The position numbers and the translations under genes are program-made. 54,562 nucleotides of DNA, taken from Candidatus Omnitrophota bacterium. GTDB taxonomy: Bacteria; Omnitrophota; Gorgyraeia; Gygaellales; Profunditerraquicolaceae. The stretch is taken from contig JAHFFR010000004.1 in the NCBI GenBank assembly GCA_023247825.1, positions 1 to 54,562 of the forward strand. Reading direction: 5' to 3'. Shown here piece by piece: positions 1-32,766 of the stretch (position 1 is the stretch's first letter; the number at the start of each line of letters is the position of its first letter). The notes beneath the pieces are model-generated. The model saw only the letters and a list, made by a program, of their open reading frames with translations. It searched no databases and was not told the DNA's origin.

Positions 1-492
1 TTTAAGCAAGAATATGCTCGTAGAAAGCCCGACGTTAATCATGCACAAAATATAACCGATAGGGGTATTTCTTAAATGCAGCTTATTTAATAAAACATAA
101 AGCGCGACAAAGCTTCCCGGAACAGGAATCATCATTGCCGCCATAAACATAACAAATAAAAACTTTCTGCCCGCAAAACGCAAGCGGCTGAAAGCATAGG
201 CGGCCATAGAAGAAATGATAACTATCCCGAAAACTACTGAAACCGTATAAATAATGCTGTTAAAAAAGTTGCGCCCGAACCCGCCCTCTTTCCAGGCCAA
301 AACATAATTCTCCAAGCGAAACTGATGGGGAATTAACGAAATGTCTTTAAAAATCATACCCTGGGTTTTGAGGCTGGAAGAAACCATCCAGAGCAGCGGA
401 TAAAGGCAGATTATTGCTACGCTGATCAAAAAAAGATGGATCAGCGTATTAAGAATAATTTTTTTGCTTTTATAATAAAGCAGATGCTTCAT
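1..492 (-). CDS. Carbohydrate ABC transporter permease (second permease), 3' end truncated by the window edge
   Basis: Manual translation from ATG at 490-492 gives MKHLLYYKSKKIILNTLIHLFLISVAIICLYPLLWMVSSSLKTQ...ENYVLAWKEGGFGRNFFNSIIYTV...SMAAYAFSRLRF..., typical of MalG-type permeases. It starts 6 nt after the stop of the upstream permease and is not in the ORF track. Confidence 0.9.
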   Translation of the reverse strand, partial: MKHLLYYKSKKIILNTLIHLFLISVAIICLYPLLWMVSSSLKTQGMIFKDISLIPHQFRLENYVLAWKEGGFGRNFFNSIIYTVSVVFGIVIISSMAAYAFSRLRFAGRKFLFVMFMAAMMIPVPGSFVALYVLLNKLHLRNTPIGYILCMINVGLSTSIFLLK

Positions 493-498
493 TTTTAA

Positions 499-1374: not shown

Positions 1375-1376
1375 TA

Positions 1377-2734: not shown

Positions 2735-3043
2735 TCAAGCCCGCAACAAACGGGAAATCCCCATAAGATCTGCTCTTTCCAGCTCAATACCTGAGTGCCA
2801 GCCCATTGCCCCTGCCAACCTTGACCAGACGACCTGCCCTCTTGTATATAGCGGATCAGTGCTGCCGGGAACATCCAGCCAAATCTCTAAAGGAGCCTGC
2901 GGTTCCAGCTCATTACCGGTTGATAACCCCAAGCCTTTTGCGCTCACATCAAAAGTCTGCGCTATCCCTTCTTTTCCGTCTAAACCTATAAATCGCGCGG
3001 AAAATTCTTTCCCGAATCTCTCAAAGATCCGACGATCGTTCAT
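2735..3043 (-). CDS. Standalone PilZ-domain protein (c-di-GMP receptor-like)
   Basis: RxxxR (DRRIFERF) and DxSxxG (DVSAKG) motifs, GQVVW; SD GAAGGGGG upstream. Confidence 0.88.
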   Translation of the reverse strand: MNDRRIFERFGKEFSARFIGLDGKEGIAQTFDVSAKGLGLSTGNELEPQAPLEIWLDVPGSTDPLYTRGQVVWSRLAGAMGWHSGIELERADLMGISRLLRA

Positions 3044-16100: not shown

Positions 16101-17255
16101 AGCAGAAACCGGCGCAGCAGCAACGGCATCATTTAAAACCAGCACGTTACGAGCCTGAACTTCTACCGGAGCCAACTCTTTGAAAGCAGAGGCAAAAACG
16201 GGCCCAAAACCTTTTCCCTGCGTTAATTTTAAAAATGAGCTAAGTGTTTTGGCTTTGACTGCGTCACGAATAAGGCCGTACATAGGCACCTTATTGTCGA
16301 GCCCAATTTCAGAGATGCTCTCAATAGGAGTATTCAGTTTTAAAACAGCGGATGTACCGGCATAGCTGGGATTAGGGCGAAAGATAATTTTTCCATTTTC
16401 TTCTTCAATTAAATATGCATAGCCGTGTTTTTCTTCAATCTTAGCAAAAATAGGTTTGACCTTTGCTGAACCGGGAATACTATTTTTACCCCCCACATCA
16501 TTAGAAATCCAATTAGCCATAACTAAGTAAGTATTCCCTACATTAACTGTGCGGTGGGAATAGCCGGGAAGCAAAACAACCTTATCGCCTGCTTTGGCAA
16601 AAGTAGCTATAACCTCTAATTTACCTTCTTCATTTTTATTTATACTCTGCTGAACATATAGTGCCTCTCCATACATAACTTCATAAATCTCAGGATACGT
16701 ATCGCCTTGGGTTGATACCGGATGTTCATGGCCTTGAGTAGCGTTCAATTGTTTTCCAAAAGATTTTCCCGGAGGCAAAACCGTAATATCATACCTTAGC
16801 CCCAATTCATTTATTTTAGCTTCATCAGCCTTATTGAAAACATCGCGGAATCCGAAATATTGTTTTTGCGGATCGCTAAGAGTATTAATTGAATTTTCGG
16901 GAACAAAACTTATAGCTATATTTTTCTCGTTATAGACTTTTGTCCATTTACCTTCGCTTTTGAATCCTGATGGGAAAGTAAGCTTTCCGGTTTTTTGATT
17001 TATCTGTAAATCAAAACCAGCCCTCTTACTAAAATTAACTAGTTCGCCAAGCACTTCTACTTCGCTTGCATTTTCTAATTCTGCGCTAATTTTTTTAACG
17101 CTATCATCACGTTTTCCATCTGTTGCCGCCGATCTACGCAATTTATCCGAATTAGCATAGCTTCTCACCGGAACGCTTGTAATAATAAAACTTACCGCTA
17201 TAATCCCGGAAATGAGTTTCGAAAATAATGTTTTCTTGGGAAACTGTATAAACAT
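10140..17255 (-). CDS. Signal-peptide-bearing five-enzyme fusion: cupin PGI - permuted TIM - unknown - class II GAPDH - PGK - enolase (2,371 aa)
   Basis: Signal MFIQFPKKTLFSKLISGIIAVSFIITSVPVRSYA, then catalytic motifs of each enzyme in series; SD TAGGAGGAAGG. Confidence 0.92.
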   Translation of the reverse strand: MFIQFPKKTLFSKLISGIIAVSFIITSVPVRSYANSDKLRRSAATDGKRDDSVKKISAELENASEVEVLGELVNFSKRAGFDLQINQKTGKLTFPSGFKSEGKWTKVYNEKNIAISFVPENSINTLSDPQKQYFGFRDVFNKADEAKINELGLRYDITVLPPGKSFGKQLNATQGHEHPVSTQGDTYPEIYEVMYGEALYVQQSINKNEEGKLEVIATFAKAGDKVVLLPGYSHRTVNVGNTYLVMANWISNDVGGKNSIPGSAKVKPIFAKIEEKHGYAYLIEEENGKIIFRPNPSYAGTSAVLKLNTPIESISEIGLDNKVPMYGLIRDAVKAKTLSSFLKLTQGKGFGPVFASAFKELAPVEVQARNVLVLNDAVAAAPVSAPVKPAPATIPARIIPAAVSLVPQILVLDNEVTLFNGANTGAHNIGHAMLNKADGALYNHSEPRARLELSMSNLLKSILRDSGIVYLTKKEEEAKAIKDKIQNNFISSLKVAANLDVLKLPENEKNKVLSYLEKIYSIVNEIDDYQDKEIELLARSLVNKIVNVQLKDLIARSKAKGYPIKQTVLCVGETKAQYLLDRTFKGEKGKEVYDKYLSENTKKILAEDLTQILDGITKEDADLIGLRIAYEPRWAINTGLTPSAQENKDVKKFIKDTSSGIFQNNLVLDLDYGGSLNAKNAEEMLAIFDGGLIGGAAKDPEVIGKVIKEAIKQGQKRGKVLTIGMNWKAEDQETGLKPLAEFEKIFKSTDLSKVRIVISTPQVPVVKSRMAQLTQSGASSTFSPDSLGTTVAKAAEEVGSGYTKDILVSNNKLEEFFKEKTKEGDTYLFLKKGDRIFALAKENANDQTLITIPSAELKDNSLMQDEYYANLLEYTSILTTKTGKGLELITVAGEELKLKSFLSRKGPTAKTGPNSPNVVEENFVLGNLIGIKRWMGTGLLKDEFFQFEFKSGLAQKGARPTLLTFKKSKNKSARGWSAIVQPKYTHLIFGFGTIGSDVAKKSRELGFNVVTVNRSANEKAGYAQSLGIPLYLLSPDDKKAFDKAKVGTEGILEDLLKSGEVDLITDATDGETEDPQTKEEITVAAYNTKYIYSKYPNIKIMYEGAEDPKIANKFFDSGTLNVLKVPYSKIMGGVNSLFFPSCNTTGQGFILDRVTANSKDLVVRVTTGRRANDPGQKGKLSPDGTAVETGYHHAEDYLEGREAYSEIINAFRKGAKNKPSLTTDASNTHLTKFHITEMWISGFDKKTDKRLTAETVKKFLSEESRIALVDFKKDKFDATLLLDILFNKLSVIHPFTPIVQVLDLPSGDVKITMAVPQESIVIPNNMNGIHALTGLYEREASTRLVNDVMQLAEISQAIESTLPLKSARVKAKESKEAEVPAIAGVITYTNKGLEDFKSPDGKPVYATLNTDVGDIEGEKVSDKQDKKLIEGYDNLERLSKNNALYILGHNGRPAGKYVEKLGLFGIAKWYAFQRAQVYGQGIEEYIGQKDANGRFIEASYWIIKNYRGKGDVKVWFLPDTDEASIIRDAQIIKDLKPGDWAIAENRRMDIREQAGDPAGENPTADPVLREAAIKDMLYRGGQELLVGPTGFNFGTADVHRFDARITAAGKYILLATGPNVAEFVGRVNKVRALIEEAHKKGAAAFVVSGLKKDKIELLLNAINNVLLKGDKVIVAGAINAYPLAAEGKTTGKMEIKKDALEMWKEVVQAAKAKGIEIYYPKALKVVKDLKTAKKEDILTIQDGNIPEGYVIGDLDGQALTEIFNILGDGSVKLVLQSGPVGPFDLNDLLAEGSNEFQQRLAKLAAEKVSVGSDSQKANKKAGVEGKFTQYTDGGSFLDALTCPIGEDCPAIAALKESARVHSKLSNTAVGKKEALSIAKIIPSQTTALGSPTVRLDVELTGGAKGHFVVPAGTSTGEDEAKTVGVEKALENLVKIQNEVTKKGLRADQLVEIGQLMLSMGKDQLGAEATLSFQMAAAWAAASQKGLQPYEFIRELAPDLASKGVPVTKIQYNITNGGAHADNSLDMQEFMIVARGKTTAESNKMCDEIDRQLGLIYQALGLKADPDDKGVGSLRGKEGGYKIEDLTLEKLVDIYAHADSYKIENLDISALKEQNVGVHEFVLNCLLAAIQNAGYEPSTSGEAGTAALALDAASTSMLVEGNNNLYNFEGRQITSEELVKIYGDWVKKYPIDSIEDGLGENDWEGWMNLIGAIGDDTLLIGDDLLVTQGGRLQKFIQLLKDRGFIDETGKVTKNLAILIKLNQNGFLTTGIDDPEKGYLGTLEVIRMAKKHGIDWVVSHRSKEAGPEENEVSIAELAAGTNAYALKSGDHVQAVRAVKEDRLAAIDVFERTKAIEKEAGALKTDKTQFETQD
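10200..11640 (-). other. eno: Enolase domain
   Basis: GSPTV, VPAGTSTG, NGGAHADN, QEFMI, KEGGY, LDAAS, SIEDG, GDDL, LIKLNQ, SHRS, LKSG; all catalytic and metal residues are recognisable. Confidence 0.93.
11690..13050 (-). other. pgk: Phosphoglycerate kinase domain (divergent)
   Basis: LNTDV, GHNGRP, ENRRM, FGTADVHR, SGLKKDK, SGPVGPFD, GSDS, TDGGSFL are colinear with PGK motifs but several are substituted. Confidence 0.82.
13190..14310 (-). other. gap: Class II (archaeal-type) phosphorylating GAPDH domain
   Basis: GFGTIG, LITDAT, YEGAE, catalytic SCNTT, RRANDP, HH, QESIVIPNN: the class II signature rather than class I. Confidence 0.88.
14950..16040 (-). other. tpiA: Triosephosphate isomerase domain, circularly permuted, with a helical insertion
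   Basis: GANTG, HSE, VLCVGET, IAYEPRWAINTG, YGGS, LIGGA, followed by the normally N-terminal GMNWK segment. Confidence 0.88.
16350..16900 (-). other. pgi: Cupin-type (archaeal-type) glucose-6-phosphate isomerase domain
   Basis: TQGHEH...YPEIYEV.YGEA...LPGYSHRTVNVG...NPSY; metal ligands H-x-H, E and H are present. Confidence 0.85.
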
Positions 17256-17286
17256 TTTTCCTTCCTCCTATTTATAATTTTTTACT

Positions 17287-20200
17287 CTACCCGCTGATGC
17301 CTACGGCTTCAAGGGCTATTTCGTATTTTTCCTGCAATTGGGCTACTTCCTCAATCGCCTTTATCGATGGAATCACGGATATCTGCCCACTTAAATCAAG
17401 AAGTTGATTATATTTATTTTTATCGGCAATCTGCATAGTTTGTTGTTCGATAAAATCATTATATCTTTCCACCACCGTGGATTCCTTCTGAAAAATACGC
17501 GCAGTTGCTTTAGCAAAAACAATGGACATTGGATTAATTTTGGCTTCTCCATTCTTTATGGTTTCTTCAGTTACATTTGGCGCATCTACGGTCACTGCTC
17601 TTAAACCGGGGTTTAACCCAACCGCTTTAGATACCTCATCTTGCAGTTCTATCTTAGAAGTTATTATCATAATCCGGTCAAAACCAATCCCGTATCCGGT
17701 GTTTAATTTCTCCAACGCGGCATCAACTCCTATTATGATAATATCTGCCAAGTTCCCAAGGCGTATAATTTTGTCCAATTCAGATTTATCTTTTGCGTAC
17801 ACTGCGATTTTAAATTCAGGATTTACCCCTTTCCATTCTTTAAGCGCAGCAATGCTTCCTGCATTTTCAATAATTACACCTGCTTTTATAAGCAAGGCGC
17901 CTTTACCGCCTTCATCTTTATCTTTTAAATCTTTTACTGCTCCCACCACATCAGCATAACCTGTCCCGAAGTTATTATGGGACTTAGTATCCGCATAAAA
18001 AACTTTGTTAAATGCATAAACATTTTGTATTGTATTTGTTGGATTTTCAGTTAAATAAAGGGTTACGCCATATTCTGCAGCGGCAGTTTTAGTTACCGGG
18101 ATAGTTACAGCAGCTAAAGATTTATCCACGTCTTTATCGGTAATCAGTTCCGCGTTTATATTATCCCATTCTGTGCCTCTTTTTGCCTCAGCTAACTCCC
18201 TTTTTGCTTCCCTATCTAAAAGCAGAAAACTAACTCCTCTTTCTTTAGCGAGATAATAATCGTAAGCGAAAATATTATTGGGGCTATTAATAACCATTCC
18301 CAAAGGAAGGCCCGTTATCCCCAATTCATTCAGAAGAGAACGCGTATCATCGATTTCAGATGGCTCGCGTACCTTGGATAAAGCAAGCGCGATATTATCA
18401 AAGCCTTCATCTCTCAATTCCTTAATCGCCTCTAACTCCCACAGAAAGATATTCTTATCGGGATTAAGCACCTTTTTCATTCCGCGATTGCCTAAATCAG
18501 GGTTTGGCTCTTTGGGTAATTCGTATCTTTCTCCGCCTAATTTAAGCTTAAGATAATCACCGGGTTCTTTAGAGGTTTCAATAATAAACTTCTCGCCTCT
18601 GGCTCTTGCTTCTGAAGCCTGCTGCCTCCAGTATTTCTTTAAAGATGCAACATAGAATTTTTTTCCTGCGTCAACTTGGCTGATATCTGCGCCTACACCC
18701 TCCAAATAACCCTCAACTGTTTTTCTTAAGGCAATACTCGATAGATTGTATTCCGCATCTTTTATTTCCTTGTTAATCCCCTGGATTTTAGTTGCTATCG
18801 CATCCAGTCCCTTTTCTATCTCTTCGCCATCCGTCTTTGATTGTTCCTTAAGCTGGTCAAATTCTGCTTTATATTGTTTATTTTGTGCCTTTAACTTGGC
18901 AATCTTTTCATAAAGGCTATTTTCTGAATCAGTAACAAACAAATCGCCTTTTGATCCCTTATCATATTCAGCAAAAAGCTGATAATGAAACGGGAGCTGT
19001 AAATGAAACGCCGAAATTGAACCCTTAGCAAAAGCTGTCTTAATATCCGGCTTGGCACCGGGATTTATTTGCTTGTATATCTCAAAGTCCCTGTTATCCA
19101 GAACCAATTTCAGGAAAGGAAGCATATCCACCAGATTTTTAGGCAGCCCCTCCTGTTTAGATTTATCGGCTATCAATTCATACAGGCTATTAACCAATGC
19201 TTCCTTATTCTCCGGCTCATTTAGTAATCCTGATTCATCGTGGCCAAGAAGATGGTTGAGCAACGTATAAAGATCATTGGTAGTCCTGTCTATGCTCGGG
19301 ATAGTAATAGAAGCAGAATCATACCCCAACAGATAAAGCACCAACGCTCCGGCTGGGTCAACTGCCGGCCAGTTACCGCAAAAACCAATAGTAAATGGCT
19401 TAAGCCCTTTGGGAATTCTTACTTCCTGGTTATACCTTTTAATCGTATTAACCAAACTAATCAGGGCGCGTATACTCTGGATGCTGCGTTCGCTGATGCT
19501 ATTAAAATATACCGCGGCATTTTGTCTATCTACTTCAAAGTTAAACTGGGTCAAATCATTGGAACCAACCGAACCAAAATCTATACCTGCCTCCAAAAGA
19601 TCCCATAATTCCACGGATTGAGGTGTTTCAATCATACTTCCACGCAGGATACGGTCTGAGGTCAAACCGGACTCATCGCAAATTTTATTCATTTGCTCTA
19701 CATGTCCAGCATCATAAACCATCGGCGCAAAAATCCCTATCCTGAATTTTCCCGGTCCAATAGGATTACCGTTTTCATCGCGGCGCGCCCCTAAATCCAC
19801 TACTTTTTTTATTGCCTTCAACTGCATACGTGTGACTTTAGGATTATCCACAAAGCTGTTAATTCCCCGATAGCCAGCCATCGAGTTTCTGCTTTTCTTT
19901 TTCGCGGAACCGGGAATCTTATCATATTCATCATCTTTAAGGTCATCTAAACGGAACAAGAATACTCCGTAAAAATGCCGCCTGATCATATCAGTAACTT
20001 TAATATCTTTTTTAGAAACTTTATCTTTATAAGATTTAATTAGCTCTTCTGTCTTCTTAAGAAGCTCGTTGGTGGATAGGGCGCCTTCTGCCTCATCAAA
20101 TGTCTGTTTATACGCATCGGCAATATCCAACAAGTTCTTTCTTAATTCGACATCCTGAATACTCTGTGCCAATTCAAGTATCTCTAACGGCTCTACTACC

Positions 20201-23200
20201 AAAGAGTTAACCACCGACTTAATACCTCCGGACATCAGGTTAACATACCTCTCTTCTCCCAATAAATACCCTTTAGTCATTTCATCGAATATTTTGATTA
20301 ACTTAAGGTCCGCGGGATTCTGCGTATCATAACGCGGATTCTGCGCATCTTCTATATAAGCCTTATAAAATTCAAGCCCGGTTCCATAAACACGCTCTTT
20401 ACCATCAATAAATACGCTGATAGTATTACCTTTATTTATATTGGGCTTAAGATACTCAGTGTCGCCTTTATACTTGAGCATTTTGTTTAAGAGCATCTTT
20501 TCAGCAAGGCTCGCCTGGCCCTTATCCAATTTTTCTATCAAAGTGTATATTTTATAAGCGTCATACCTTAGCAGGCCTTCTCCGGCGGCTCCGATTAAAT
20601 CGGCAAGGAATAATTCAAGCCGGCCTAAACCCACTCTATAAAAATCAGGCTTGTTGCGGAAAGCCCTTGCCTTATGGGCAAGCTGCGTGGAATTAATATT
20701 CAAGCCTATATAAAAATCTGAAGGCAATATACCTAAATCCTTAACATTATAACTTCTACCGGCATCAACCAAATCATAATCCCAGCCGTCTAAAATAAGC
20801 CCTGCTTCGGCATCAACGGTAACCTTACGGCCGTCCCATAATTTATCGAGATTGCCTATGCCGCTTATAGCAATAAGGCCGTATTCGGTAGCTACAATCA
20901 TGGTATGAGAATTTCTCCCGCCAACTGCCGCGATTACTGCCAAAGCCTCTTTCATAATTTCGTTCATGTCGGGATCGCTCTGCATAGTCGCCATGATCCT
21001 GCCTACTGTTTTACCCCAAGTTTCCGGATGCTCCTTATCCACAATATATATTCTTCCCTTTACAGCTCCTTGGGTATGCGCCTGAGGATTCTCATATAAA
21101 ACCTTTCCTCCTGCTCTTGCCTTCTTTATTGAATCTTCTGTTACCTGCTTATAATTTAACTCAATGATATTGGGATCCATAAAATTGAACTTGGTTTCCG
21201 GCCTAATCTGGGTCATAAACTGAATATATTGATAACGCGGCTTGCCTAAATGATCCTTGGCAATACCGTCAGGTTCAGAAAGATCTTCAACAAAGACTGG
21301 ATTCCCAAGCTTATCTCTTCTTATAATTAATCCTCCCTCCATGTCGCTAAACATACCGAAAGAATTGCTTAAGGTGGTAAGAGCGCGGCCGATATTAGTA
21401 AGTAAAAGTCTATCACTTACCGCGGGGGTACCTTTTAATTCAGAGGGAAAAGGTAAAATAAAGACCCCTTTATCCATTTCGCCGCTTTTTAGCTTTTCTT
21501 TTAAAGTATTTATATCAAACATTATCCCTGGAACATGCCAAGTGCTGCTGCCTTCTTCAGGGGCTTTATAACGCCTATGAGGTTTACTGCCTTGAAGCTC
21601 CACATAAAATAAATCTCCGGTGCCGTTGCCGGAAACAAGGGGATTCGTTTGTCCTTTTATTATTTCTCCTTCAATTTCCGCATATCCTGATGCCCGATTT
21701 ACTGAAAACGCCACAAATCCGAATTCGGTCAAAGCCATCTGCTGGAATAACGAGCTCATAGCCGCTTTTTCCGTAAATATGGGAATTTTCATTTCCAGCC
21801 TATACTCTATGGAACGCTCATTGAATAAAGACCTCTGATTAGCCAGCCATTCTTTGATAAAAATCTCATACATATCATCATTTAATTCCTGCTCTCCCAC
21901 TTCCTGACGTAATCTGTTCAGGATATCATACCAGGGAAAAACTTCCTTACTTAACTGTTCCCAAGTATATCCGAATCTTTCAGGAGTTGTATCAATCTTC
22001 TTAAATAGTTCCCTTAAATACGACACGAACAAAGACGTATCCTGCCTTCCGGCAAAAGAAGCTGTTTCGCTGTCTTCGCCTACCGCGGAACTTCGTATAG
22101 CCAACATCAACTGGTATATGGGTACGCCTAAACTCTTTGCCAATATATCCAAGTTGTCTCTTATCTCTTTGGCTAATTGCGGAGGGATCTCGGCTTTTCC
22201 CCAATCCAGGCTATCCTGAAAGTTAGCCGCGATTCTTGCAACCAAATCCTTTTTTTCCTGGACATATCGGCTTTTACGCGCGTCAAAAGCATCCTGTTTA
22301 CCTTGAAGATACTTTATATCTTCGTTATATTCTTTTTCCATCTTAGCTAAAGTATTCACAAGCTCTTTATCATATTCGGTAAATTTGCCCTTTAAATTAT
22401 TGTATTCTACCAGATCCATAAAACAGCGCCCGGCAGTAGCAAACATCTGCATAGTGATCGCACCAGGCAACCACTGCATCATGCCCGTATAAGCGGTCTT
22501 TCCGCCGAATAATGAGGTATCACGGTCACTGACAATATAATCCGGAATTATATTACGCCCCTGTATCAAACTCGCATCGGCTAAATGTTCTCCGCTTAAC
22601 CTGAAAACAGGCGGTTTCTTTTTATCTTTTGCATCTATTTCCATTACTACTTCCGAAACATGACTTTCAAGAATCTTTCTTAAATCCTTTTCCGCTTCCA
22701 AAGCAGTTACCTTAGCCCAATAGCCAAGCTTCTTGCCATCCCCAATCTCTGCCTTTTCTAATAATTCAGCTGCCTTACGACCGTCAAGTCCGCGATTCCG
22801 TTCCATAACATCGATTAAAAAATACTGCCTCTCTGCCGCGGTCAGCTTCCGCGCTCCTTCAGTGCGCGATAAACGGTTAACCTCTTTTATAAGATTAAAA
22901 ATATATATCGCGTCCTCCAAACGGTTTTTACCCGTAAGGCTTACCTGGGCAATCCTATTCATTATTTTCTCTGCTTCTTCCTGAGAGATATTCTTATCAC
23001 TTAATTGAATCGCCGCTGCAGCAAAAAGCCCCATGCCAACGCGTTTCTGTCCACCCTGCATAAGATAATCTAAGAAATCTTTCTCTATTTTTATGGTTCT
23101 TGTAGCTTTATCCGCGCTAAAATGCTTGTCGCCTAAAGTACCGGAAGGGACTAATAGAACTTTTGAGTTGGCAATAACATCACTTATCCATTTAAATTCT

Positions 23201-23751: not shown

Positions 23752-23860
23752 TTTCCCTCCGTATTAGTTTGAATGTAGTTTTTTGCTGATTTAGATTTAT
23801 TAAATTATGAAGGCATTTTTTGTTCTTATTATGCGCCATATTGATTTTATTCTTTGTACC

Positions 23861-23899
23861 GGGGCCGGATTTATTTCTCGCGAAAATAAACCCGGCCCC
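23861..23899. other. Long intergenic inverted repeat (GGGGCCGG-ATTTATTT...AAAATAAA-C-CCGGCCCC); no U-tract, so a stabilising/processing hairpin or atypical terminator
   Basis: Read directly from the sequence, between the FBP aldolase/phosphatase fusion and the ppsA fusion. Confidence 0.6.
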
Positions 23900-23920
23900 A
23901 TGCTTAAAAAGATAAACTAA

Positions 23921-26900
23921 TTAAATTGCAATACCAGCTGTTGTAATTTCAGTTTTGTATCTGTTAACGGAAGCTTCAACTTCAGTTACGGATTGACCTG
24001 CTCCTACATGGAAATTACCAGTTGTCGTGTCCTTAGAGAAAAGCCCATCCAACTTATTCACATCTTCATTGGATACTTCTTTACCCTCTTCAGCCGCAGG
24101 AATAAGTTCTAAACCCAGCTTTAAAGCTTTGGCCACTGATATTGCATCCGACGTCCCGGCATCTTTAGCCGAGTCAATGGCTATGCGCGTTACCATTTTA
24201 CCTTCAAACTGATTAACATACTCCTCGGGACCAATTACCTGATAAATAGCCGTATTAAGTTTTTCTCTAACTTGATTGGCTATTATCTCCGGATTGGTTC
24301 CCACCACAACTGCCGCAAACATATCTCGTTTTATTTCAGCGTAACCTCCATTTATCTTATTTATCTTCTCTAAATCCGCAGCCACTGCCTGCTCTACTTC
24401 TTCCGGCTTTATATCATCGCGATTAATATGCAGGACTATTTTTATATTTCCCTGCCCAAGCTGCTCGGAGATATTCTGCAAAGCCATAATACCAGCAGGG
24501 CTATTTTTAAGCAAAGTTTCATGATCCACGAGAATAGTATAAACTTTACCGTCTTTAGCTTTGTTTATTTCTAACCCCTTAGCTGATATCCCGAAATTGA
24601 TATCTGCAGGAAACGACTTTGCAATAGGCGCTAAATCCTTACCCCAAGTTAACTCTTGAGCCACCGCAAGCATTGCCCTTCCTTTATTCGCCGTAACCTT
24701 TTTTCCAATTTCAATAAATTCAGCATCTACAGCTTTTTGCTTCGCAATTTCTATATTATCTTCACTTACATAATTTTCCCATCGATCTTTAAGTCTTTTT
24801 TCAATTATTTCTGGGCCCTTTTGATACTCTATTTCAGTTGCTGGCAATCTCAATCCTCCCTCACCAAACCCTTCTTCCAGCTGTCTTAAAGCTGCTGCAG
24901 CTCGCCGATCTTGAATATACCTGATTGCGGGATTAGCGGCCATTAAATCATAAAAACCCTCTAATCTTCCATTATTCAAATTAAAACTCCACATTGACAG
25001 AAGAGGAGGCCCATCATAAATACCAATCTTTGCATCAGTTAATGCTACTGGAAAGAAAGGGCCTTTATTAGAACCCCTCATCCAGCCAGGAACCATATAT
25101 TCTCCCTTTAAAAATGCAGAAGTAATTTCTCCTACAGCAGGAAATTTTTTCTGCGACCTCATCATAAACATTGGATCATCTTTTCCTACATATTCTCCGG
25201 CTATTTTACCTAAACGCTGAGCTGTAACCGCAGCCATTTCTTCTTCGCCTACTTTGATAAGATCATAGGTGTACCTATCCGGTTCCCCACCAAACCAATA
25301 AGCATCAGCATAATCGTTGTTTTTTAACCAAATATGCCTGCCAGCACTATTGTTATGATCAAAATCCAGCATACCAGCATTTATATCTACTGAATTTCCG
25401 GGACCCAGCGGACGCCAGGTAGTATCTGGGCCAAAAATAATATTCCAGATACCTTTATTAAACGCGCCCGGAGCGGTTTTATCTGCTTGAGTAAAAATCA
25501 CCACTTCGGCTGCTTGTTCTCTTATCACCATTTCCGCAACACTGGGACCGGCGCCTTTTACATTACCTGAAAACGCATCCGCTAAAAGATCCTGGCCGGC
25601 TCCATAAAAACCATGGTCCTTAGCGACAACTGCTCCCTGCACAAAACCATCCCAGATATTTTGGTGAATATATTCATTATCTTTACCCTTATCATGAGTA
25701 ATTGTTACCGATATATCATCTCCAACTCTAGTGATAAAGAAGTCCACTATCTCGCCTCTTTCCGCGGCTTTCATCCATTTTTCCGCGACAGCCTCAAGCA
25801 TAATCCCAGGCGCGGTTCCATGCCCGCCAGAAGAACCTACATCCGCTTTAGCAATAGTTATAGTAAGCAGCTGCCCTTTCGGCACTCCCGGATGAATTTT
25901 ACTGGAACCTTTAATAGCAAAAGTATCTTTTTTACCCAAGTCGTTGATAAGACGGAATTTCTCTATTTTCACTTTATCGTTACTTGCGATAACAGAGCCT
26001 TCCTCGGTAACTTCAGTTATAACATTATTGAAGTTTTTATTAATCTTATCGTTTATCTTGCTAAGCTTAGCAGATACGTCTTTAGCTACGTCAACATGCT
26101 TGCCCCGCGCCATATCCATAAACTCATGCAGCATCATCTCCTGATACAAGGCGACACCCTCATCACCCTCTTCTTCAAAACTATTTATTCTAGCTAAAGA
26201 AGAATAAATAGTCCTTGCCCCACCCTCGATATTTTTGCTTCCCTCATAGGCAAAGGTGCCGACGTGCGCGATCAATGTTCTATGTTCGCTGGATAAAATA
26301 TCGCCTACACTAGAAAGAGAAGGATCTAACCCTTTTTCGCCAAAAAGAAATGTAACAAATCTTGTATCATTAACTATGGCTTTTCTTGCTTCTTTAGTTC
26401 TTTCGCTAGCATCTTTAATTGCCGCAATAGCTTTAATCTTCTTTAGGAAAGCTGTCGCGGTTTTTTTAGCTGATTTTCCCTCTATAGCTTTCTGGACTCC
26501 GTTTTCATCGATTTTAGATATTTCAGACACTACTTTATTAATAAAATCATCGGTAAAAACTTTATTATCCAAAAAGCTGCGGGCAGAAAAAAGCTTCTGG
26601 CTTATCTCGCCTTTCAGAATATCAATCTCTCCGCTTTTTTGAATAAATTCAGATGCGCTCTTATCCAAATCATTTACAGCATTATGCCCGAATATCTCTA
26701 CTGCCCTGCCTTCAACAAAAGCTTTTGCTGCCTTTACTTTAAAGATTTTATCATGCGCCAAAACCTTTCCCGGCTCACTTAAAAATCCGGAGCTAAACAT
26801 GCTTGCTAAATCACCATCTCGAGCAGTTGCGCTTTGTGTTCTTAAAGTATCGGTGTTATTTACCGAATCGACTTTAGTTGAAGCAAAACCCGCGGTTATC

Positions 26901-26980
26901 CCGCTAAACGCTACTATTCCTACTATTGTGAAACAAATCAGTGCTAAAACCATTCTGCCGCTTAAAAATTTCTTTAACAT
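23921..26980 (-). CDS. fbp: Signal-peptide-bearing bifunctional fructose-1,6-bisphosphate aldolase/phosphatase (FBPase class V) fusion with extra N- and C-terminal domains (1,019 aa)
   Basis: KADVGSSGGH, VGDD, YGAGQDLLADAFSGNVKGAGP, ADKTAPGAFN, EYVGKDDP (Tyr and Schiff-base Lys), GWMRGS, DGPP (core ~24780-25870); SD CAGGAGG. Confidence 0.93.
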   Translation of the reverse strand: MLKKFLSGRMVLALICFTIVGIVAFSGITAGFASTKVDSVNNTDTLRTQSATARDGDLASMFSSGFLSEPGKVLAHDKIFKVKAAKAFVEGRAVEIFGHNAVNDLDKSASEFIQKSGEIDILKGEISQKLFSARSFLDNKVFTDDFINKVVSEISKIDENGVQKAIEGKSAKKTATAFLKKIKAIAAIKDASERTKEARKAIVNDTRFVTFLFGEKGLDPSLSSVGDILSSEHRTLIAHVGTFAYEGSKNIEGGARTIYSSLARINSFEEEGDEGVALYQEMMLHEFMDMARGKHVDVAKDVSAKLSKINDKINKNFNNVITEVTEEGSVIASNDKVKIEKFRLINDLGKKDTFAIKGSSKIHPGVPKGQLLTITIAKADVGSSGGHGTAPGIMLEAVAEKWMKAAERGEIVDFFITRVGDDISVTITHDKGKDNEYIHQNIWDGFVQGAVVAKDHGFYGAGQDLLADAFSGNVKGAGPSVAEMVIREQAAEVVIFTQADKTAPGAFNKGIWNIIFGPDTTWRPLGPGNSVDINAGMLDFDHNNSAGRHIWLKNNDYADAYWFGGEPDRYTYDLIKVGEEEMAAVTAQRLGKIAGEYVGKDDPMFMMRSQKKFPAVGEITSAFLKGEYMVPGWMRGSNKGPFFPVALTDAKIGIYDGPPLLSMWSFNLNNGRLEGFYDLMAANPAIRYIQDRRAAAALRQLEEGFGEGGLRLPATEIEYQKGPEIIEKRLKDRWENYVSEDNIEIAKQKAVDAEFIEIGKKVTANKGRAMLAVAQELTWGKDLAPIAKSFPADINFGISAKGLEINKAKDGKVYTILVDHETLLKNSPAGIMALQNISEQLGQGNIKIVLHINRDDIKPEEVEQAVAADLEKINKINGGYAEIKRDMFAAVVVGTNPEIIANQVREKLNTAIYQVIGPEEYVNQFEGKMVTRIAIDSAKDAGTSDAISVAKALKLGLELIPAAEEGKEVSNEDVNKLDGLFSKDTTTGNFHVGAGQSVTEVEASVNRYKTEITTAGIAI

Positions 26981-27013
26981 CTCATTCCTCCTGTTTTATT
27001 AATTTCCATTTTT

Positions 27014-28564
27014 TTATTCCAGCTTATTTTCATCTATATTATCACTCCCCTGATTTTTCCTTTCGCCTCTTAAGACGGAAAGGTAAATACTGGAGTCGGT
27101 TTTTTTCGTGATCGCCGGGGTTACCACTGCGTAGGAATACCCCTTATCTCTAAACATCTGGGTCATGCCGGGAGTATGAAACCCGCCGGCAATAAACACC
27201 GCTAATTTTTCACCGGAATCATTCATTTTATTGACGATATTCTTAATAAATGCCTGCTCCCGGTCCGAGCCCAATTTATAAAACTCATCGAATTTACTCA
27301 AGTTCTCATCGATTACGCCGGAGGCGGATGGCTGCACCGCTAAACTGTATTTGGCGCAATTCTCCTTTAAAAAATCAAGCCAGGAAGCGGTTAAAAATTC
27401 CTGGCGATGTGCTTTAAAATATTCAAAATCCTCGGGGGTCATCTCTAAACTCACCAGCCCTTTGAGGATGTTAATTGATTTTGAGAGTTCATATAATTTC
27501 TTCTGGTCGGTATTGGCAAAAAGCGCCTCTTTTATTTTTTCTTCCAGCGAGCCAACTTCTTTTAAAAGCGCTGCCACATCTATCTTTGTATTTTCATTTA
27601 TGTAGCGGATATAAGCGGCCAGCTGAGGATAATTTTGCTCAAGGTTTATTCTTTTCTTCGCCGCCAGTTCCTTCAAAAATGAATAATATTCCTGGGGCTT
27701 AATACCGCCTGACTTAAATTCCTGGCTCTTATCAATTACCGTCTTTACCTGTTTTTCATTAAGCACGCTGCCCAAACTCTTGATGAATTCATTTCTTTGC
27801 GCTTCCGCCTGTTTAAAATCAACCGCTTTTTCCAGCCGGGCTAATTCAGCAAAAGCGCTTAAATATGGATAATCCTTAAGGTCAAAACCTTTGCTGGAAG
27901 CAATATTCTTAAGATACCCGCAGTAATCGCCTAAAGAGAGCGTTTTACCTTCGTAATTCTTCTTTGCGCTTTCCATATATCCCAATTCTTCACTATATAT
28001 CTTCGGCTTCAAAACGCTGACAATTTTGGATAAATCATCCAGATATTTTAATCCCTCGTCCCGGACAGAATCCACCTTATGAAAGGCCTCTAAATGCGCG
28101 TTATACAGCGCTTCATCCTCTATGCCATACAGGTCAAGAGGATAATCGGAAATGATATCCAGATACTCTTCGCCTGAAATTTTGCCTAATTTTAAGTATT
28201 TGTCGGCAACTTCCTGCCTGGCCTTTTTATCCGCGTAGTTGCGCAGAAAGTCAAGGTTAACATTACCGCTGCCGCCCTCAACCATAATCAATTTAAGGCC
28301 GTAGTCCTTGACCAAAAAATCCAATAACTGCGCCATATTCTTCTGGGCTTCGTAATTGCAATGGGCATCCTGGAGATGAATAATGGTTTTGGCGCTATTT
28401 TGCATGGCGCTCTGTGCTTCGAATGTATCCTTAATATTGCCAAACTGGGTGGGAATTTGCAGGGTTTTGACTAAAGAGGCGAAAGCAGAAGAATCCAAAG
28501 TGGAAAGTAAAAGGAATACAACAATGAGTAAGGGAATTTTTTTCAGGTAATGAGGTTTTTTCAT
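27014..28564 (-). CDS. Exported TIKI/TraB/ChaN(EreA)-like fold protein, standalone
   Basis: Signal MKKPHYLKKIPLLIVVFLLLSTLDSSAFA; motifs IIHLQDAH..YEAQ, MVEGG, DRE..F..NI, FIAGGFH..G. Start placed at ATG 28564; the track's extension to 28621 lies inside the structured leader. Confidence 0.65.
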   Translation of the reverse strand: MKKPHYLKKIPLLIVVFLLLSTLDSSAFASLVKTLQIPTQFGNIKDTFEAQSAMQNSAKTIIHLQDAHCNYEAQKNMAQLLDFLVKDYGLKLIMVEGGSGNVNLDFLRNYADKKARQEVADKYLKLGKISGEEYLDIISDYPLDLYGIEDEALYNAHLEAFHKVDSVRDEGLKYLDDLSKIVSVLKPKIYSEELGYMESAKKNYEGKTLSLGDYCGYLKNIASSKGFDLKDYPYLSAFAELARLEKAVDFKQAEAQRNEFIKSLGSVLNEKQVKTVIDKSQEFKSGGIKPQEYYSFLKELAAKKRINLEQNYPQLAAYIRYINENTKIDVAALLKEVGSLEEKIKEALFANTDQKKLYELSKSINILKGLVSLEMTPEDFEYFKAHRQEFLTASWLDFLKENCAKYSLAVQPSASGVIDENLSKFDEFYKLGSDREQAFIKNIVNKMNDSGEKLAVFIAGGFHTPGMTQMFRDKGYSYAVVTPAITKKTDSSIYLSVLRGERKNQGSDNIDENKLE

Positions 28565-28760
28565 AGTAATAAAAAAAGCCACGATTTTTTTAATTATACT
28601 AGCTGAACTCCCATAATACATTCAGCTAGCGTAATTAAAAACCGTGGCCGATTTTAATTATACTATCTAGTTACCTAATCTTTTAAACTTTTGAAAAGTC
28701 CTTAGAAAGCGCTTTCCTTTAATTCTTCTACAAGTATACTGTATTATAGAGCTTTGTCAA
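28565..28760 (-). promoter_or_regulatory. Leader copy 1: sigma70 promoter + palindromic operator + alternative-hairpin attenuator
   Basis: TTGACA (28760-28755)-16 nt-TATACT (28738-28733); GAAAGCGCTTTC (28705-28716); hairpin TAATTAAAA-TCGGCCACGGT-TTTTAATTA; long stem GCCACGGTTTTTAATTA...TAATTAAAAAAATCGTGGC followed by a T-run. Confidence 0.75.
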
Positions 28761-28800
28761 GATTTTTTTCACTTTTTTAAAGCAAAAAAGCGAGTTTACG

Positions 28801-31800
28801 TTATATAAACTTATTTATAAAATTAGCCACTAAATCAGCGTCGGCTTTGGTTGCCTCGGATACCCCCTGAACAGGCTCTATATCCGGCAAATCAAGTCCC
28901 AAAAACACCTGACTATAAGTATTTTTATAGGTCTCTTTAGAAATAATCCCCTGGCGCTCCATATTTCCATAAAATTCTTTGAACCTATCTAAAATAATTC
29001 CGCTGTAAGATCTCCCTTCTGAATTTGCGCCTGCAAGAACTTGCATCGCCTTGGCAAGCGCAACAATACTGATCGTCTTATCTGAAAATCCCACTTGTTT
29101 AACTTTTAAATCTATCTTTTCTCCTGCCGGCTTCAGTATCACAACATTCTCTTGAAGATTAACCTGCCGATTTTCTAATTCTGACTTTAATTCGCCTGCT
29201 GTTTTTACTGCAATAATGTTGCTGTTTTCGCTAAACAAAGCCCTTATCTTATCCGCGCCTTCTCCATAAATATCAAGCATAATACGTACGCCATGGCGTG
29301 GCTGCAATCTAATAATCGCGTTCAATGCGTCTATGGCGCCGGGCTTCTTAAAAAAGCTTGAATGAACAACTAAAGCTAATTTTAAATCTTCAAGGCGGAA
29401 TGTTTTAGAATACAAAACTTCAAACTGCCCCCATATATCGTCAAGATATCCGGGCAATAGTGCCTCTGCGCCTACGGCTTTAAAGAATCTGCTGTTAGCA
29501 TTTAAGAAATTTTTTAACTTTTCTGCATTGCCATCATCAAAGCCTATTTTAACAGGTATGCCTTCCCCATTAACCCATAGCCTGTAAGCTGGTTTAAAAC
29601 GCTCCTGCCAGAGTTTTCCTGCTTTTTCACGGGAAGAAACTGCTTCTTTTAACAATTTTCCTGCTTCGGTTCCTTCCTTTTGAGCAGCTAATTTCTCTTT
29701 TTTGTCTGCATCTTGGTCGCGGTTAACTGCGTCCCTATCCATAGCAAAATTCCTGCCCACAACTCCGGCAAGCTGGATGTTACCTGAATTAAGTTCCTTT
29801 ATCTTATCTTCAATCTGTTTTAAATAATGGATCCCGTTTTCATCGGGTATGCGCGTCATCACATCCCGGCCATCAAGTATCGGCCAGATATTGACTTTAA
29901 TATCGCTGCCTAAATTCATTTGTTTTGCCATTTCCATTAATGCCAGAAAATATCTATTATCGGAATGGATGCCGCCGCTGGAATAAAGCCCCATTATGTG
30001 GATATTATGGTTTCCCTGTCTGGCCAATTCAAATACCTGGCGTAAAACCGGATTTTCAAAAAAAGTTTTATCATTAATTTTATCTATAATCTGTTTATAA
30101 AGCGTAGGCGGATTGTAACCTGTCCCGATGACACGGTGTCCATTGTCTGAATCTCCCATTTGATAATCCGGAAGCCCAACCGCATCTCCATGAGCCTTAA
30201 GAGCTGTAAAAGGACAGTTCGTAAGAAGATCCAAGTAAACCGGCGGCTTGGCTAATTCAATACCGTTATATTCATTTGCCTCAGGGTTATTATATTTATT
30301 CACCCCCCAGCCATCGCGGATCACTACAACTACCGGCCCTTGAATATCCTGATATTTATAATCTTCCAATAAACTTTCACTCATTTCTTCAGGCTTAGGA
30401 ATGCCTAATATTTCTAATAAAGTTGCGGCTATATTAGAAAGCCCCTTGCCCTTTTTTAATTTTATATCCTTTCCCAATCCATCAACTATAAAATTAACCG
30501 GATTAGTAGTGTGCTGATCAAAAGGGATTACACCATATTTATCAGATAAAGGCATGCCTTTCTCGTCTAAGGTTACCAACTGCTCAATATTGCCATGGTC
30601 TGATATTTCAATATAAACACCTTTCTGACGCAGAGTTTCCTCGCGAATTCTTCCAGCTTCCTTATCCGCGGCTAAAACCGTCTTCTTGGCCCGCTCCCGG
30701 TCAACCTTGATATTATGCCCCTGGATATCCACAGGCAAATTAACAACGACCATTTTCTTTTTGGGCGTTTCTTTAATTTCATCCAGATAATTAATTACAT
30801 TATCAGTTATCTCTGCATATTTCATTTGCGGAGCTTTCTTATTATCTTCAACGCTTTCGGAAGGAACAATTGATACCTTTATGCCCAAAGCCGCATAATC
30901 CAGGTTTCTCTGTCCGGCAAAGAAATAGGTAACGTGCTGGCCCTTATCCGATTCTGTAAAATAACCTTGAATCACGCCTGCATCTTTCAAAACTTCTATG
31001 ATACTTTTATACTTAGGCAAAGTAAACTCGGAAGTAAATGCGGCTTGAATTCCGTAAGCTTTAAAATGCTTCTCATCGTAAGTAGTAAAAGGTACAAAAG
31101 TGAGCCCTAAATCATCGATACCAAAACGATTACCATGCCGGTTGAAATTCGGATCCGTAAAAGCAATCATTGCTCCTAATGAACGGTCGGTCCGATGATT
31201 CGTCCAGATAACTATATCGCCTTTCTTTATTTTACCTACGGGCTCGCCTTTAGGATCAGTTACTATCAAAGGGGGCACATAATAATCATCCATACTTGCC
31301 CCACTTTTCGTGTAAATTTTTTCCAACTGCTCAAAAATTGTAGGCAGAGGTTCCTTCGCTTTTAATTGAATAAATCCGATAGACCTGCCTTCAGGAGGAT
31401 AAAAAACTCTTTCTCCAGTGACTATATCCTCATCATTAAACTTGAAATCAACAAATTTTTCTTTTAAATCTTCTTGGGAAAAATAATGGACAAGTTTTTC
31501 ATCTCTTACAAAAGTATTTTTTTCTATCTTTTCGCCTTTGCCATAGGTTTTGTCGTTCACTGATTGAGCAATGAAATATATGCGGCCGCCTGGTTTTAAA
31601 ACTCGGTATATTTCCTTAATAGCCCTAGCAATGTCGACATCTTTCATAAAATTTAAGCTTAAGTGACTGTAAACCACATCAAAGGATTCATCTGAAAAAG
31701 CAAAAGTTTTGGTAAGATCTTGAACCTTGGTTGTCAAATTTTTTATATTTTCTTTATTAATTTTACCACTTAATTCACTAATTGCAGATTCAACAAAATC

Positions 31801-32172
31801 TGTAGCAATTACGGTATGCCCGGCTTTTGCAAAAGATTCTTCGTCTAATCCTGCTCCACAACCTAGAGAAAGAATCGTTGATCCCGGTATCATATCTTCG
31901 AGTACTTCTTTAGCAAATTGGTGTATTTCTATCTGTTTAGCTTTTCTGGCATCTTTTAAATCTTTCTTCCAGACTAAATGTTGATCAATTAACTCTTCCG
32001 AAATCTCTTTTACTCTTCCATCTTCTTTTGTTGCCGCCTCTCTCCTTAAATTATCCGAAACGAATATACCGGCATAACTCCTTATCGGAACGCCGGTAAA
32101 AATAAAACTGGTTAAAGCAACGCCGGAAATGAATTTTACGAATTGAGTTTTTTTAGGAAATCGTGTGTACAT
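28801..32172 (-). CDS. gpmI: Signal-peptide-bearing fusion: class I SAM methyltransferase - circularly permuted 2,3-BPG-independent phosphoglycerate mutase - shared C-terminal domain (1,123 aa)
   Basis: Start reassigned to ATG 32172 (SD GAGGAG; leader homologous to the other fusions). MTase SLGCGAG, FDVV, RVLKPGG; iPGM NHRTDR, ESDKGQHVT, DIQGH, SDHGN, HTTNPV, then RDGWG, GDSDNGH, GGIHS, DGRD, GRNFAMDRD. Confidence 0.9.
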   Translation of the reverse strand: MYTRFPKKTQFVKFISGVALTSFIFTGVPIRSYAGIFVSDNLRREAATKEDGRVKEISEELIDQHLVWKKDLKDARKAKQIEIHQFAKEVLEDMIPGSTILSLGCGAGLDEESFAKAGHTVIATDFVESAISELSGKINKENIKNLTTKVQDLTKTFAFSDESFDVVYSHLSLNFMKDVDIARAIKEIYRVLKPGGRIYFIAQSVNDKTYGKGEKIEKNTFVRDEKLVHYFSQEDLKEKFVDFKFNDEDIVTGERVFYPPEGRSIGFIQLKAKEPLPTIFEQLEKIYTKSGASMDDYYVPPLIVTDPKGEPVGKIKKGDIVIWTNHRTDRSLGAMIAFTDPNFNRHGNRFGIDDLGLTFVPFTTYDEKHFKAYGIQAAFTSEFTLPKYKSIIEVLKDAGVIQGYFTESDKGQHVTYFFAGQRNLDYAALGIKVSIVPSESVEDNKKAPQMKYAEITDNVINYLDEIKETPKKKMVVVNLPVDIQGHNIKVDRERAKKTVLAADKEAGRIREETLRQKGVYIEISDHGNIEQLVTLDEKGMPLSDKYGVIPFDQHTTNPVNFIVDGLGKDIKLKKGKGLSNIAATLLEILGIPKPEEMSESLLEDYKYQDIQGPVVVVIRDGWGVNKYNNPEANEYNGIELAKPPVYLDLLTNCPFTALKAHGDAVGLPDYQMGDSDNGHRVIGTGYNPPTLYKQIIDKINDKTFFENPVLRQVFELARQGNHNIHIMGLYSSGGIHSDNRYFLALMEMAKQMNLGSDIKVNIWPILDGRDVMTRIPDENGIHYLKQIEDKIKELNSGNIQLAGVVGRNFAMDRDAVNRDQDADKKEKLAAQKEGTEAGKLLKEAVSSREKAGKLWQERFKPAYRLWVNGEGIPVKIGFDDGNAEKLKNFLNANSRFFKAVGAEALLPGYLDDIWGQFEVLYSKTFRLEDLKLALVVHSSFFKKPGAIDALNAIIRLQPRHGVRIMLDIYGEGADKIRALFSENSNIIAVKTAGELKSELENRQVNLQENVVILKPAGEKIDLKVKQVGFSDKTISIVALAKAMQVLAGANSEGRSYSGIILDRFKEFYGNMERQGIISKETYKNTYSQVFLGLDLPDIEPVQGVSEATKADADLVANFINKFI

Positions 32173-32421: not shown

Positions 32422-32766
32422 CTATGAATTTAAAGGAATGTTCCGCAGCTTATTGCTCGCCCTTAAAAGCCGCGAAATACCCATTAAATCCGGCCGCTCC
32501 AAATGAATACCGGCTTTGTATTTATTGGAGTCCATCGTCTTTGACCAGACAACTTCTCCCTTGGCATATAGAAGATCGCTATTGTCGGGCATCTTAAACC
32601 ACATCTCCAAAGAATTACGCGGCTGCAGCTCCTCGCTGGTGACTACACCTATGCCGTTTGCGCTGACATCAAAGGTTGTTGCCTCTCCCTCCTTGTTTTC
32701 TTCGCGGTTAAGAAACCTCATTGGGAACTCTACCACAAACCTGGTGAACATCCTGCGGTCATCCAT
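32422..32766 (-). CDS. Standalone PilZ-domain protein, paralog of 2735-3043
   Basis: DRRMFTRF (RxxxR), DVSANG (DxSxxG), GEVVW, shared C-terminal LERxDLMGISRLLRA; SD AAAGGAGGGG. Confidence 0.88.
   Translation of the reverse strand: MDDRRMFTRFVVEFPMRFLNREENKEGEATTFDVSANGIGVVTSEELQPRNSLEMWFKMPDNSDLLYAKGEVVWSKTMDSNKYKAGIHLERPDLMGISRLLRASNKLRNIPLNS

Follow-up and report, generated by a model that had tools for sequence, protein, structure and literature searches.

A post-signal motif on four leader-bearing enzyme fusions of an Omnitrophota bacterium and its probable identity with the neck behind a candidate Tiki-like head domain

Whether the giant multi-enzyme proteins of the Omnitrophota are cut, and by what, is the question raised by the locus described here. 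It lies on the 54,562-nucleotide contig JAHFFR010000004.1 (the whole of which is the window in this text), contig C64 of the 85 contigs in a 1.41-Mb Omnitrophota metagenome-assembled genome (MAG) that is 89.9% complete. The window encodes four fusions of metabolic enzymes, referred to here as payloads, which carry the motif D-x-L-R-x-x-[AS]-A behind their export signals, and a 535-amino acid (aa) protein that lacks it. Relatives of the 535-aa protein are found as a domain, the head, at the N-terminus of much larger proteins, where the head is followed by a short element that we call the neck. The reading that we favour, with a probability of approximately 0.55, is that the post-signal motif is a recognition or processing site for the head, which here would act in trans.

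The motif is real and is found behind the export signals of all four enzyme fusions. Translation returned exactly the four strings given in a preliminary description of this DNA, each 2–11 residues past an AXA-type signal-peptidase site, and in two of the four the motif does continue with VKxISxEL, as VKKISAEL and VKEISEEL. By inspection each of the four leaders runs from a positively charged n-region through a hydrophobic core to an AXA-like site (SYA, VYA, GFA and SYA). The features expected for Sec export and signal peptidase I, including small residues at −3 and −1, are therefore present, and the predicted cleavage is one judged by eye. Inspection also led us to reject a lipoprotein leader, as there is no cysteine behind it, a Tat leader, as the n-region is without an RR motif, and leaders of the pilin and double-glycine types. 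Three of the leaders are mutually homologous, as had been proposed, with BLAST alignments of 59% identity over 63 aa (E 1.5e-11) and 54% over 46 aa. At the DNA level they match only in part, with many synonymous differences, so that the likeness reflects old paralogy under selection rather than recent gene conversion.

Does the motif mark a wider set of cargo proteins, as the preliminary description expected? The expression D.LR..[AS]A matches six times in the 642,088 residues of open reading frames (ORFs) of the genome; four matches are the payloads, and the other two lie inside proteins of cytosolic type, at residues 319 and 74. A scoring matrix trained on payloads from other genera only ranked the four payloads 1, 3, 4 and 7 of 1,803 ORFs, the interlopers being short ORFs without leaders. 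Because these scans of all ORFs gave no further members, no other leader-bearing protein of the MAG carries the motif and the expected set shrinks to the four clustered proteins; in other genomes it consists of large genes beside stand-alone heads. The 535-aa and 2,260-aa proteins of the window are indeed without the motif in the translation, the regular expression search and the matrix scan. The N-terminus of the 2,260-aa protein (10089 region) has a leader and then AGIIEDLKSGRPPSQ, which bears a faint likeness to the neck (D-L-K...R-P-P) and receives no matrix score; its orthologues have ITDEITSRLPS at the corresponding place.

The 535-aa protein has no credible Pfam match, with one sub-threshold hit only. 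It is a member of an unannotated but well-conserved family that comprises no fewer than 9,287 clusters (50% identity), has the invariant blocks Q-D-A-H-C-N-Y-E-A-Q, V-E-G-G and G-G-F-H-T, and occurs in 217 of the 401 Omnitrophota genomes that were sampled. The domain in most lineages occupies residues ~40–530, right behind the leader, of proteins of 1,000–14,000 aa (1,000–5,500 aa among the clusters), and it is the usual N-terminal head of the very large proteins of the phylum. Within such fused proteins the head ends approximately 45 residues past GGFH and is followed by a short variable linker and then by a hydrophobic-L-[R/A]-x-P element, the neck, just ahead of which stand-alone heads terminate. 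The neck of one large clade reads GMLAP, SLLAP or NMLAP, and [MLIF]L[AGS]P occurs at +47 to +71 past GGFH in 47 of 114 representatives, compared with 0.9% of control windows. The fused proteins that score best in a profile search with stand-alone heads have ENLRQIP, ENLRPMP, QLRIP, SHLRPRP, STLRPP or GQLRQPTAEKDGG there; the forms that match the motif, such as ENLRQIP, GQLRQP..KDGG and GMLAP, lie at a fixed distance behind the head. In relatives (K/R)DGG follows 5–10 residues past the neck and is itself followed by an amphipathic helix, which is clear in NLRKPDAKDGGAAQEIENELLG and others; the helix-like VKxISxEL of two window payloads would be part of this helix. An AlphaFold2 (AF2) model of a natural fusion places LRQP in a loop with a predicted local distance difference test (pLDDT) score of ~58 between confident helices, the amphipathic helix behind it having a pLDDT of 82. 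The neck therefore looks exposed, the model showing it only as this low-confidence loop.

The link between post-signal motif and neck is clearest at three syntenic loci (L095–L097). At one of them an 848-aa protein (P0168) consists of the head fused to the neck GQLRQPTAEKDGGLMQNLQDEI and a payload of ~300 aa, while at the other two the head is separate (526 or 565 aa) and the homologous payload, with 41–42% identity to P0168 (E 8e-53 and 2e-48), is a gene of its own. One of the separate payloads has a signal peptide and then 'ALNDTLRPGQ...EDGG' (start string AAYPSWAALNDTLRPGQ), and in the other the neck is degenerate, 'AQNTLSTP...KDGA'. PAWGAPAEDHYRPPMAEKDGGLMQNLQNDL opens the gene after P0168 and is almost the same module as the neck of P0168. 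As one payload family thus occurs both fused behind head and neck and separate behind signal peptide and neck, the post-signal motif and the head–payload neck are very probably the same element. The proposal that the motif tells cargo (the four payload fusions) apart from machinery (the 535-aa protein) also holds, because the motif would be the neck that follows, in fused relatives, the domain homologous to the 535-aa protein.

Conservation beyond the cleavage site had been claimed from the four proteins and proved to be real, selected and phylum-wide. Homologues of the 2371-aa fusion in other MAGs have a near-identical leader and keep the motif as SYA(ALGx)ADKLR[PRSA] or ADHLRP on differently composed fusions. 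A hidden Markov model of the leader, searched over the 401 genomes, is specific for family f1 only. Its strong matches are confined to 7 genomes, all of which have a stand-alone head, with one to three matches per genome, always adjoining the head gene and in ORFs of 1,300–3,300 aa. Weaker matches were generic hydrophobic cores and were discarded. The syntenic neighbourhoods contain a giant gene, a homologue of the 535-aa protein of ~510–555 aa, leader-bearing fusions, PilZ and an ATP-binding cassette (ABC) importer.

The motif persists while the leaders diverge, as in GTDNLRPAPV, AASNLRPAAA, SSSNLRPKAV, ADSRLRPSSV, SQSNLRKPDAKDGG and ATDTLRTQSTAKDGG. The last of these, from a protein of locus L047 with the same FBPase_3 family and a similar length, is nearly identical to the DTLRTQSA of the window. 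The large genes after the stand-alone homologue in more distant classes begin with PAWALRPGIEG, PSYALRPLAAG, NSTLRPESA, YQTTLRPAAT or FDALRPLSL. L-R lies within 32 aa of the hydrophobic core in 46 of 56 large proteins, of many families, beside stand-alone heads and in only 32 of 212 leader-like ORFs of the present genome (Fisher p = 4e-21, with the related genomes not being independent). The anchored consensus of the 46 is D-[NK]-L-R-P-x-[AS]-[AV], with D in 24 (−2), P in 20 (+2), [AS] in 26 (+4) and [AV] in 25 (+5), and across this set the motif starts 0–9 aa past the nearest AXA-like site. Among the genomes examined the motif is limited to payloads beside stand-alone heads. We dropped the idea of concerted evolution of necks within a genome, since the neck most similar to that of the FBPase payload belongs to a protein of the same family in a distant genome, and not to one of its neighbours. 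In family f18 (loci L054, L057, L060 and L061) the neck abuts the leader (PAWALRP, PSYALRP), and G-L-E-E, perhaps one more junction motif specific to a lineage, recurs where other lineages have DGG or RSExR.

What kind of protein the head is was approached through its conserved residues. These are D85-x-H87, E115 (+28), R454 and H482 (+28), of which the His, Glu, Arg and second His are invariant in 58 sequences with identity down to 22%, the first acidic residue being Asp in most members and Glu in a few. The Tiki signature of RRSP consists of E3900-x-H3902, E3930, R4001 and H4030, with H85 and E113 in Bcr135 (PMC6254334). The constellation of the head, [E]-x-H with Glu ~28 residues later and Arg ~29 before the second His, matches this published spacing. 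Using hhalign against four genuine TraB proteins, the R...GGFH...GY block aligned locally (P = 8e-4, probability 24%) and the N-terminal half of the head gave no match. No profile match above the gathering score was obtained to PF01963, PF04187 or PF05139 among 34 members; below it, PF04187 (ChaN, 'Tiki superfamily') was found in three of the 34, with a best E of 0.0037, and PF01963 (TraB) in one, with E 0.01. A PF04187 search of five genomes did not match the head genes, and a profile search of PDB sequences with the head was empty. The superfamily has an α/β fold, in which helices flank a core of parallel β-sheet; six short strands and a large helical insert of ~300 residues are seen in AF2 models, whose pLDDT is 84 (>95 for the head). 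Foldseek searches with two independent models gave nothing at E < 0.1; EreC (6xcq, 6xcs) and Bcr135 (3b55, 2rad) recur at ranks 3–38 of the lists for both models. Judged on its sequence, the head is probably a very divergent hydrolase of the Tiki/EreA/ChaN type and a candidate member of that superfamily.

The arrangement could be explained by a modular system typical of Omnitrophota, in most members a single polypeptide, made up of an N-terminal leader, a head of ~470 residues (QDAHC...VEGG...GGFH), a neck (hydrophobic-L-[R/A]-x0-2-P), a junction and the payload enzymes, in which the junction would be lineage-specific (DGG here) and accompanied by an amphipathic helix ahead of the payload. The window would then hold a split form of the system, with one head-only gene and four payloads that each have a Sec-type leader and then a neck. 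Since all carry export-type leaders, head and payloads would be expected to meet at the inner membrane's outer face, and since the neck alone is common to the four payloads and also stands behind the head in fused relatives, recognition of the neck by the head is the simplest model, towards which we lean. Cleavage at the neck would free the payload from a membrane-bound leader or from the head, in trans here and in cis in the fused proteins, and would resemble the trimming of the first residues of mature Wnt by TIKI1, which takes eight residues off the N-terminus of secreted Wnt3a (PMC8191133). Processing is favoured because the catalytic-type residues of the head are invariant, one head serves four payloads, the neck loop looks exposed and TIKI1 sets a precedent; a single head gene for four payload genes would also suit a catalyst better than a 1:1 scaffold. 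That the neck is actually cut, rather than merely docked, is nevertheless a tentative proposal. In its strongest and somewhat doubtful form, the 535-aa protein would be a maturation protease that acts in trans in a new polyprotein system of bacteria, cutting the D-x-L-R-P neck and so releasing leader-anchored gluconeogenic mega-enzymes from the membrane, while the same head would cut itself in cis in thousands of Omnitrophota giants. The preliminary description had suggested a second-step targeting or processing signal; processing remains as the leading reading, and the dedicated export or injection route that was part of the suggestion found no support.

Several observations weigh against recognition and cleavage of the neck by the head. 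Approximately half of the fused representatives have only looser variants of the neck, and 10 of the 56 payloads beside stand-alone heads are without L-R. The DGG behind the neck is degenerate in the window payloads (DGK, DGR, DGD) and absent in the PPDK protein. In 20 of 46 cases the arginine is directly followed by proline, which many proteases accept poorly at P1′, and if signal peptidase I has already cut the leader, it is hard to see what a further cut of 2–11 residues would be for. All similarity between the head and the Tiki superfamily is sub-threshold, with Foldseek E values of 0.6–1.5 and Pfam scores below gathering. The head could also act on some other substrate, the neck being a mere linker, and ATP-dependent enzymes outside the cytoplasm are hard to explain.

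The neck could instead remain uncut and bind the membrane-anchored head non-covalently, so that the four fusions were held as a metabolon at the surface or periplasmic face, the same tether being covalent in fused relatives. The fusion/fission equivalence and the comparative data fit such docking equally well, co-localisation would be sensible for four payloads in one pathway, and the amphipathic helix behind the neck (pLDDT 82) could be the real interface. We consider docking unlikely, as the invariant D-x-H/E/R/H point to catalysis, there is one head gene for four payload genes, and LRQP is modelled as a low-confidence loop rather than a docked element; PMT, a Tiki-fold protein without these catalytic residues, is inactive (PMC6254334). 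Another possibility is that a separate export or injection machine, such as type II secretion or a prey-targeting route, reads the motif as a second-step sorting signal in the manner of PEXEL or RxLR, and that the head is uninvolved. The motif's position right behind the signal peptide, its x-L-R core and the acidic stretch next to it would suit this role, as would a T2SSE gene four genes upstream of the head in L095–L097 and, in the passages of one report that bear on the matter, a host dependence attributed to Omnitrophota and type II secretion genes near giant-gene loci (10.1101/2023.11.21.568195). However, the same motif is internal in fused proteins, directly behind the head, and therefore cannot be an N-terminal sorting signal there; there is also no cargo set beyond the neighbours of the head gene, and the window contains no secretion genes, all of which makes a sorting signal improbable.

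More local explanations fare less well. The residues might be kept for Sec targeting, signal peptidase I cleavage or early folding, with no dedicated partner, and the distance of 0–9 residues from an AXA-like site, together with the small residues at +4 and +5 that resemble a second such site, is in keeping with this. The other leader-bearing proteins of the genome are without the motif, however, and it also lies around residue 520 of fused proteins, at a great distance from any signal peptide, so there is little to recommend an export context. It is least probable of all that the motif is a functionless spacer inherited with duplicated 5′ gene ends. Three of the four leaders are indeed paralogous, but the unrelated fourth still carries the motif, the leader DNA has accumulated many synonymous differences, and L-R stays invariant while flanks and leaders diverge across families and classes, so that this idea was already disfavoured.

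Recognition of the neck by the head has partial parallels in known systems. TIKI1/TIKI2 and Wnt also pair a membrane-tethered Tiki-fold enzyme with a site a few residues past a signal-peptide site (eight in Wnt3a; PMC8191133), and the His/Glu/Arg/His spacing of the head is that of RRSP and Bcr135 (PMC6254334). In contrast to TIKI, the head has sub-threshold similarity and contains a helical insert of ~300 residues; its candidate substrates are giant bacterial enzyme fusions, [D]-x-L-R-P is unrelated to the N-terminus of Wnt, and enzyme and substrate form one polypeptide in most Omnitrophota relatives. MARTX proteins are likewise large, exported and modular, with modules freed by a built-in protease at short inter-module sites. 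Their processing enzyme is a C80 cysteine protease, and RRSP is cargo. They too contain a Tiki-fold endopeptidase, RRSP itself (PMC6254334), whereas the Tiki-like domain described here is an N-terminal head and the candidate processor, encoded in the window by a separate gene for four proteins.

The analogy to host-targeting motifs drawn in the preliminary description is formal only. Plasmodium PEXEL and oomycete RxLR-dEER also place a short motif with an x-L-x or x-L-R core past the signal peptide, with acidic residues next. PEXEL is a protease site. Both belong to a eukaryotic endoplasmic reticulum pathway, are needed for delivery into host cells and have the consensus RxLxE/Q/D or RxLR, unlike D-[NK]-L-R-P in a bacterium, which is tied to a linked head domain and is also internal in fused proteins; the motif does not belong to either class. 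The pairs of sortase with LPXTG, exosortase with PEP-CTERM and C39 peptidase with double-glycine leaders are similar in that a short motif on few proteins co-occurs with one dedicated, often neighbouring enzyme; they differ in that the present motif stands near the N-terminus, behind a signal peptide, the enzyme is of another class, and the pair alternates between fused and split. The locus type is that of the Omnitrophota giants ('Archaeovorins', very long proteins), for which passages of two reports describe a giant gene, then pilZ, then PPDK and domains of sugar metabolism that carry signal peptides (10.1101/2023.11.21.568195; 10.64898/2026.06.07.730766). These passages propose post-translational cleavage, call the N-terminal regions domain-poor and put forward C39 and S8 peptidases, for which they name no cut sites (10.1101/2023.11.21.568195; 10.64898/2026.06.07.730766). 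The keyword-matched passages of the same two reports do not mention a Tiki-like head, a neck motif or a split arrangement (10.1101/2023.11.21.568195; 10.64898/2026.06.07.730766), and a keyword search of the literature gave no relevant pairing of Omnitrophota with Tiki and none with 'polyprotein'.

The features of the locus are collected in Table 1. On the minus strand the order of genes is a 7,166-aa giant, PilZ, the 1,123-aa fusion, the 535-aa protein, the 1,019-aa fusion, the 2,154-aa PPDK-like protein, the 2,371-aa fusion, the 2,260-aa protein (no Pfam domain), another PilZ and an ABC sugar importer. The true start of the head gene is probably the internal ATG at 28564 (MKKPHYLKK...), which gives ~516 residues, since this is where orthologues begin and where the match in the genome search starts. 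For the 1,123-aa fusion the likely start is ATG 32172, rather than TTG 32247. The best promoter-like site, TTGACA-16-TATACT (28760–28733), lies upstream of the head gene; in a promoter and terminator scan of the region scores were not above those of shuffles.

Table 1. Positions of the head gene, the payload genes, their leaders and their neck motifs in the window
Feature	Position	Strand	Basis
535-aa stand-alone 'QDAHC' head protein with its own leader	27014..28621	-	
Payload gene 1, 2371 aa: GPI-cupin, TIM, unknown region of ~800 aa, PGK, enolase	10140..17255	-	
Payload gene 2, 2154 aa, PPDK-like: PPDK_N, PEP-utilizers, PEP-utilizers_C	17287..23751	-	
Payload gene 3, 1019 aa: FBPase_3 (fructose-bisphosphate (FBP) aldolase/phosphatase); start 33 nucleotides past the head gene	23921..26980	-	
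Payload gene 4, 1123 aa: S-adenosylmethionine (SAM) methyltransferase and cofactor-independent PGM (iPGM)	28801..32172	-	
Sec-type leader MFIQFPKKTLFSKLISGIIAVSFIITSVPVRSYA of the 2371-aa fusion	17154..17255	-	
Leader of the 2154-aa protein, homologous to the FPKKT leaders	23644..23751	-	
Leader of the 1019-aa protein, without homology to the other three	26882..26980	-	
Leader MYTRFPKKTQFVKFISGVALTSFIFTGVPIRSYA of the 1123-aa fusion	32071..32172	-	
Neck motif DKLRRSAA, aa 37–44 of the 2371-aa GPI/TIM/PGK/enolase fusion	17124..17147	-	translation
Neck motif DKLRGSAA, aa 39–46 of the 2154-aa PPDK-like protein	23614..23637	-	translation
Neck motif DTLRTQSA, aa 44–51 of the 1019-aa FBP aldolase/phosphatase fusion	26828..26851	-	translation
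Neck motif DNLRREAA, aa 40–47 of the 1123-aa methyltransferase and iPGM fusion	32032..32055	-	translation

Ordinary gap-pgk-tpi genes lie on contig C29 (18430–20910) and an ordinary enolase gene on contig C13 (6162–7268), so the leader-bearing fusions are a second, divergent set of these enzymes; PGK scores 536 bits in the ordinary gene and 84 bits in the fusion. The expected GAPDH was not matched by PF02800 in the 2371-aa fusion. Between its TIM and PGK parts (aa 710–1529; 12669–15128, minus strand) are ~800 residues without a family match, with a weak Rossmann hint at aa 985–1020.

Two PilZ paralogues with 53% identity (2735–3043 and 32422–32766, minus strand) flank the head/payload cluster, and pilZ after giant genes is also reported in a passage of the literature on these proteins (10.1101/2023.11.21.568195). 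The 7,166-aa giant (32962–54462, minus strand) has about 18 [K/S/R]-x-DGG junctions between modules and shares blocks of 68–88% identity with a 10,627-aa ORF on contig C14 in a different order; aa 3177–3457, for example, map upstream of aa 2744–3170. The reordering of such similar sequence blocks suggests cassette shuffling between giant genes. Synteny continues downstream (window 1–2678; loci L031–L044 and L052) with a sugar-type solute-binding protein, two permeases and proteins of ~770, ~383, ~450 and ~530 aa, an apparent module for uptake and utilisation that travels with the cluster. The cluster as a whole is accessory, a genome search having found the head in only 3 of 16 other genomes of the genus and 10 of 59 of the family. 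At L039/L040 (G326:C39:14462-30139) a 5,225-aa giant upstream of the head gene has, by eye, an apparent response-regulator-like start and no obvious leader, so not all giants in these loci look exported.

New in this work are a test of the post-signal motif against the neck of fused proteins, from which the two emerge as equivalent, the payload family that occurs both fused and split, a consensus that holds across the phylum, and the observation that in this genome the proteins with the motif are exactly the four clustered payloads. For annotation this gives a simple rule, in which a leader followed by x-L-R-P and encoded beside a stand-alone head gene denotes a payload. A complete second set of gluconeogenic enzymes would be handled by the head–neck system in this organism. 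The locus is a natural split version of the giants, with a head of ~516 residues and four candidate substrates that share only an 8-residue motif behind the leader. If the head is a maturation protease, this split locus would be the smallest experimentally tractable protease–substrate pair for the processing of giant proteins.

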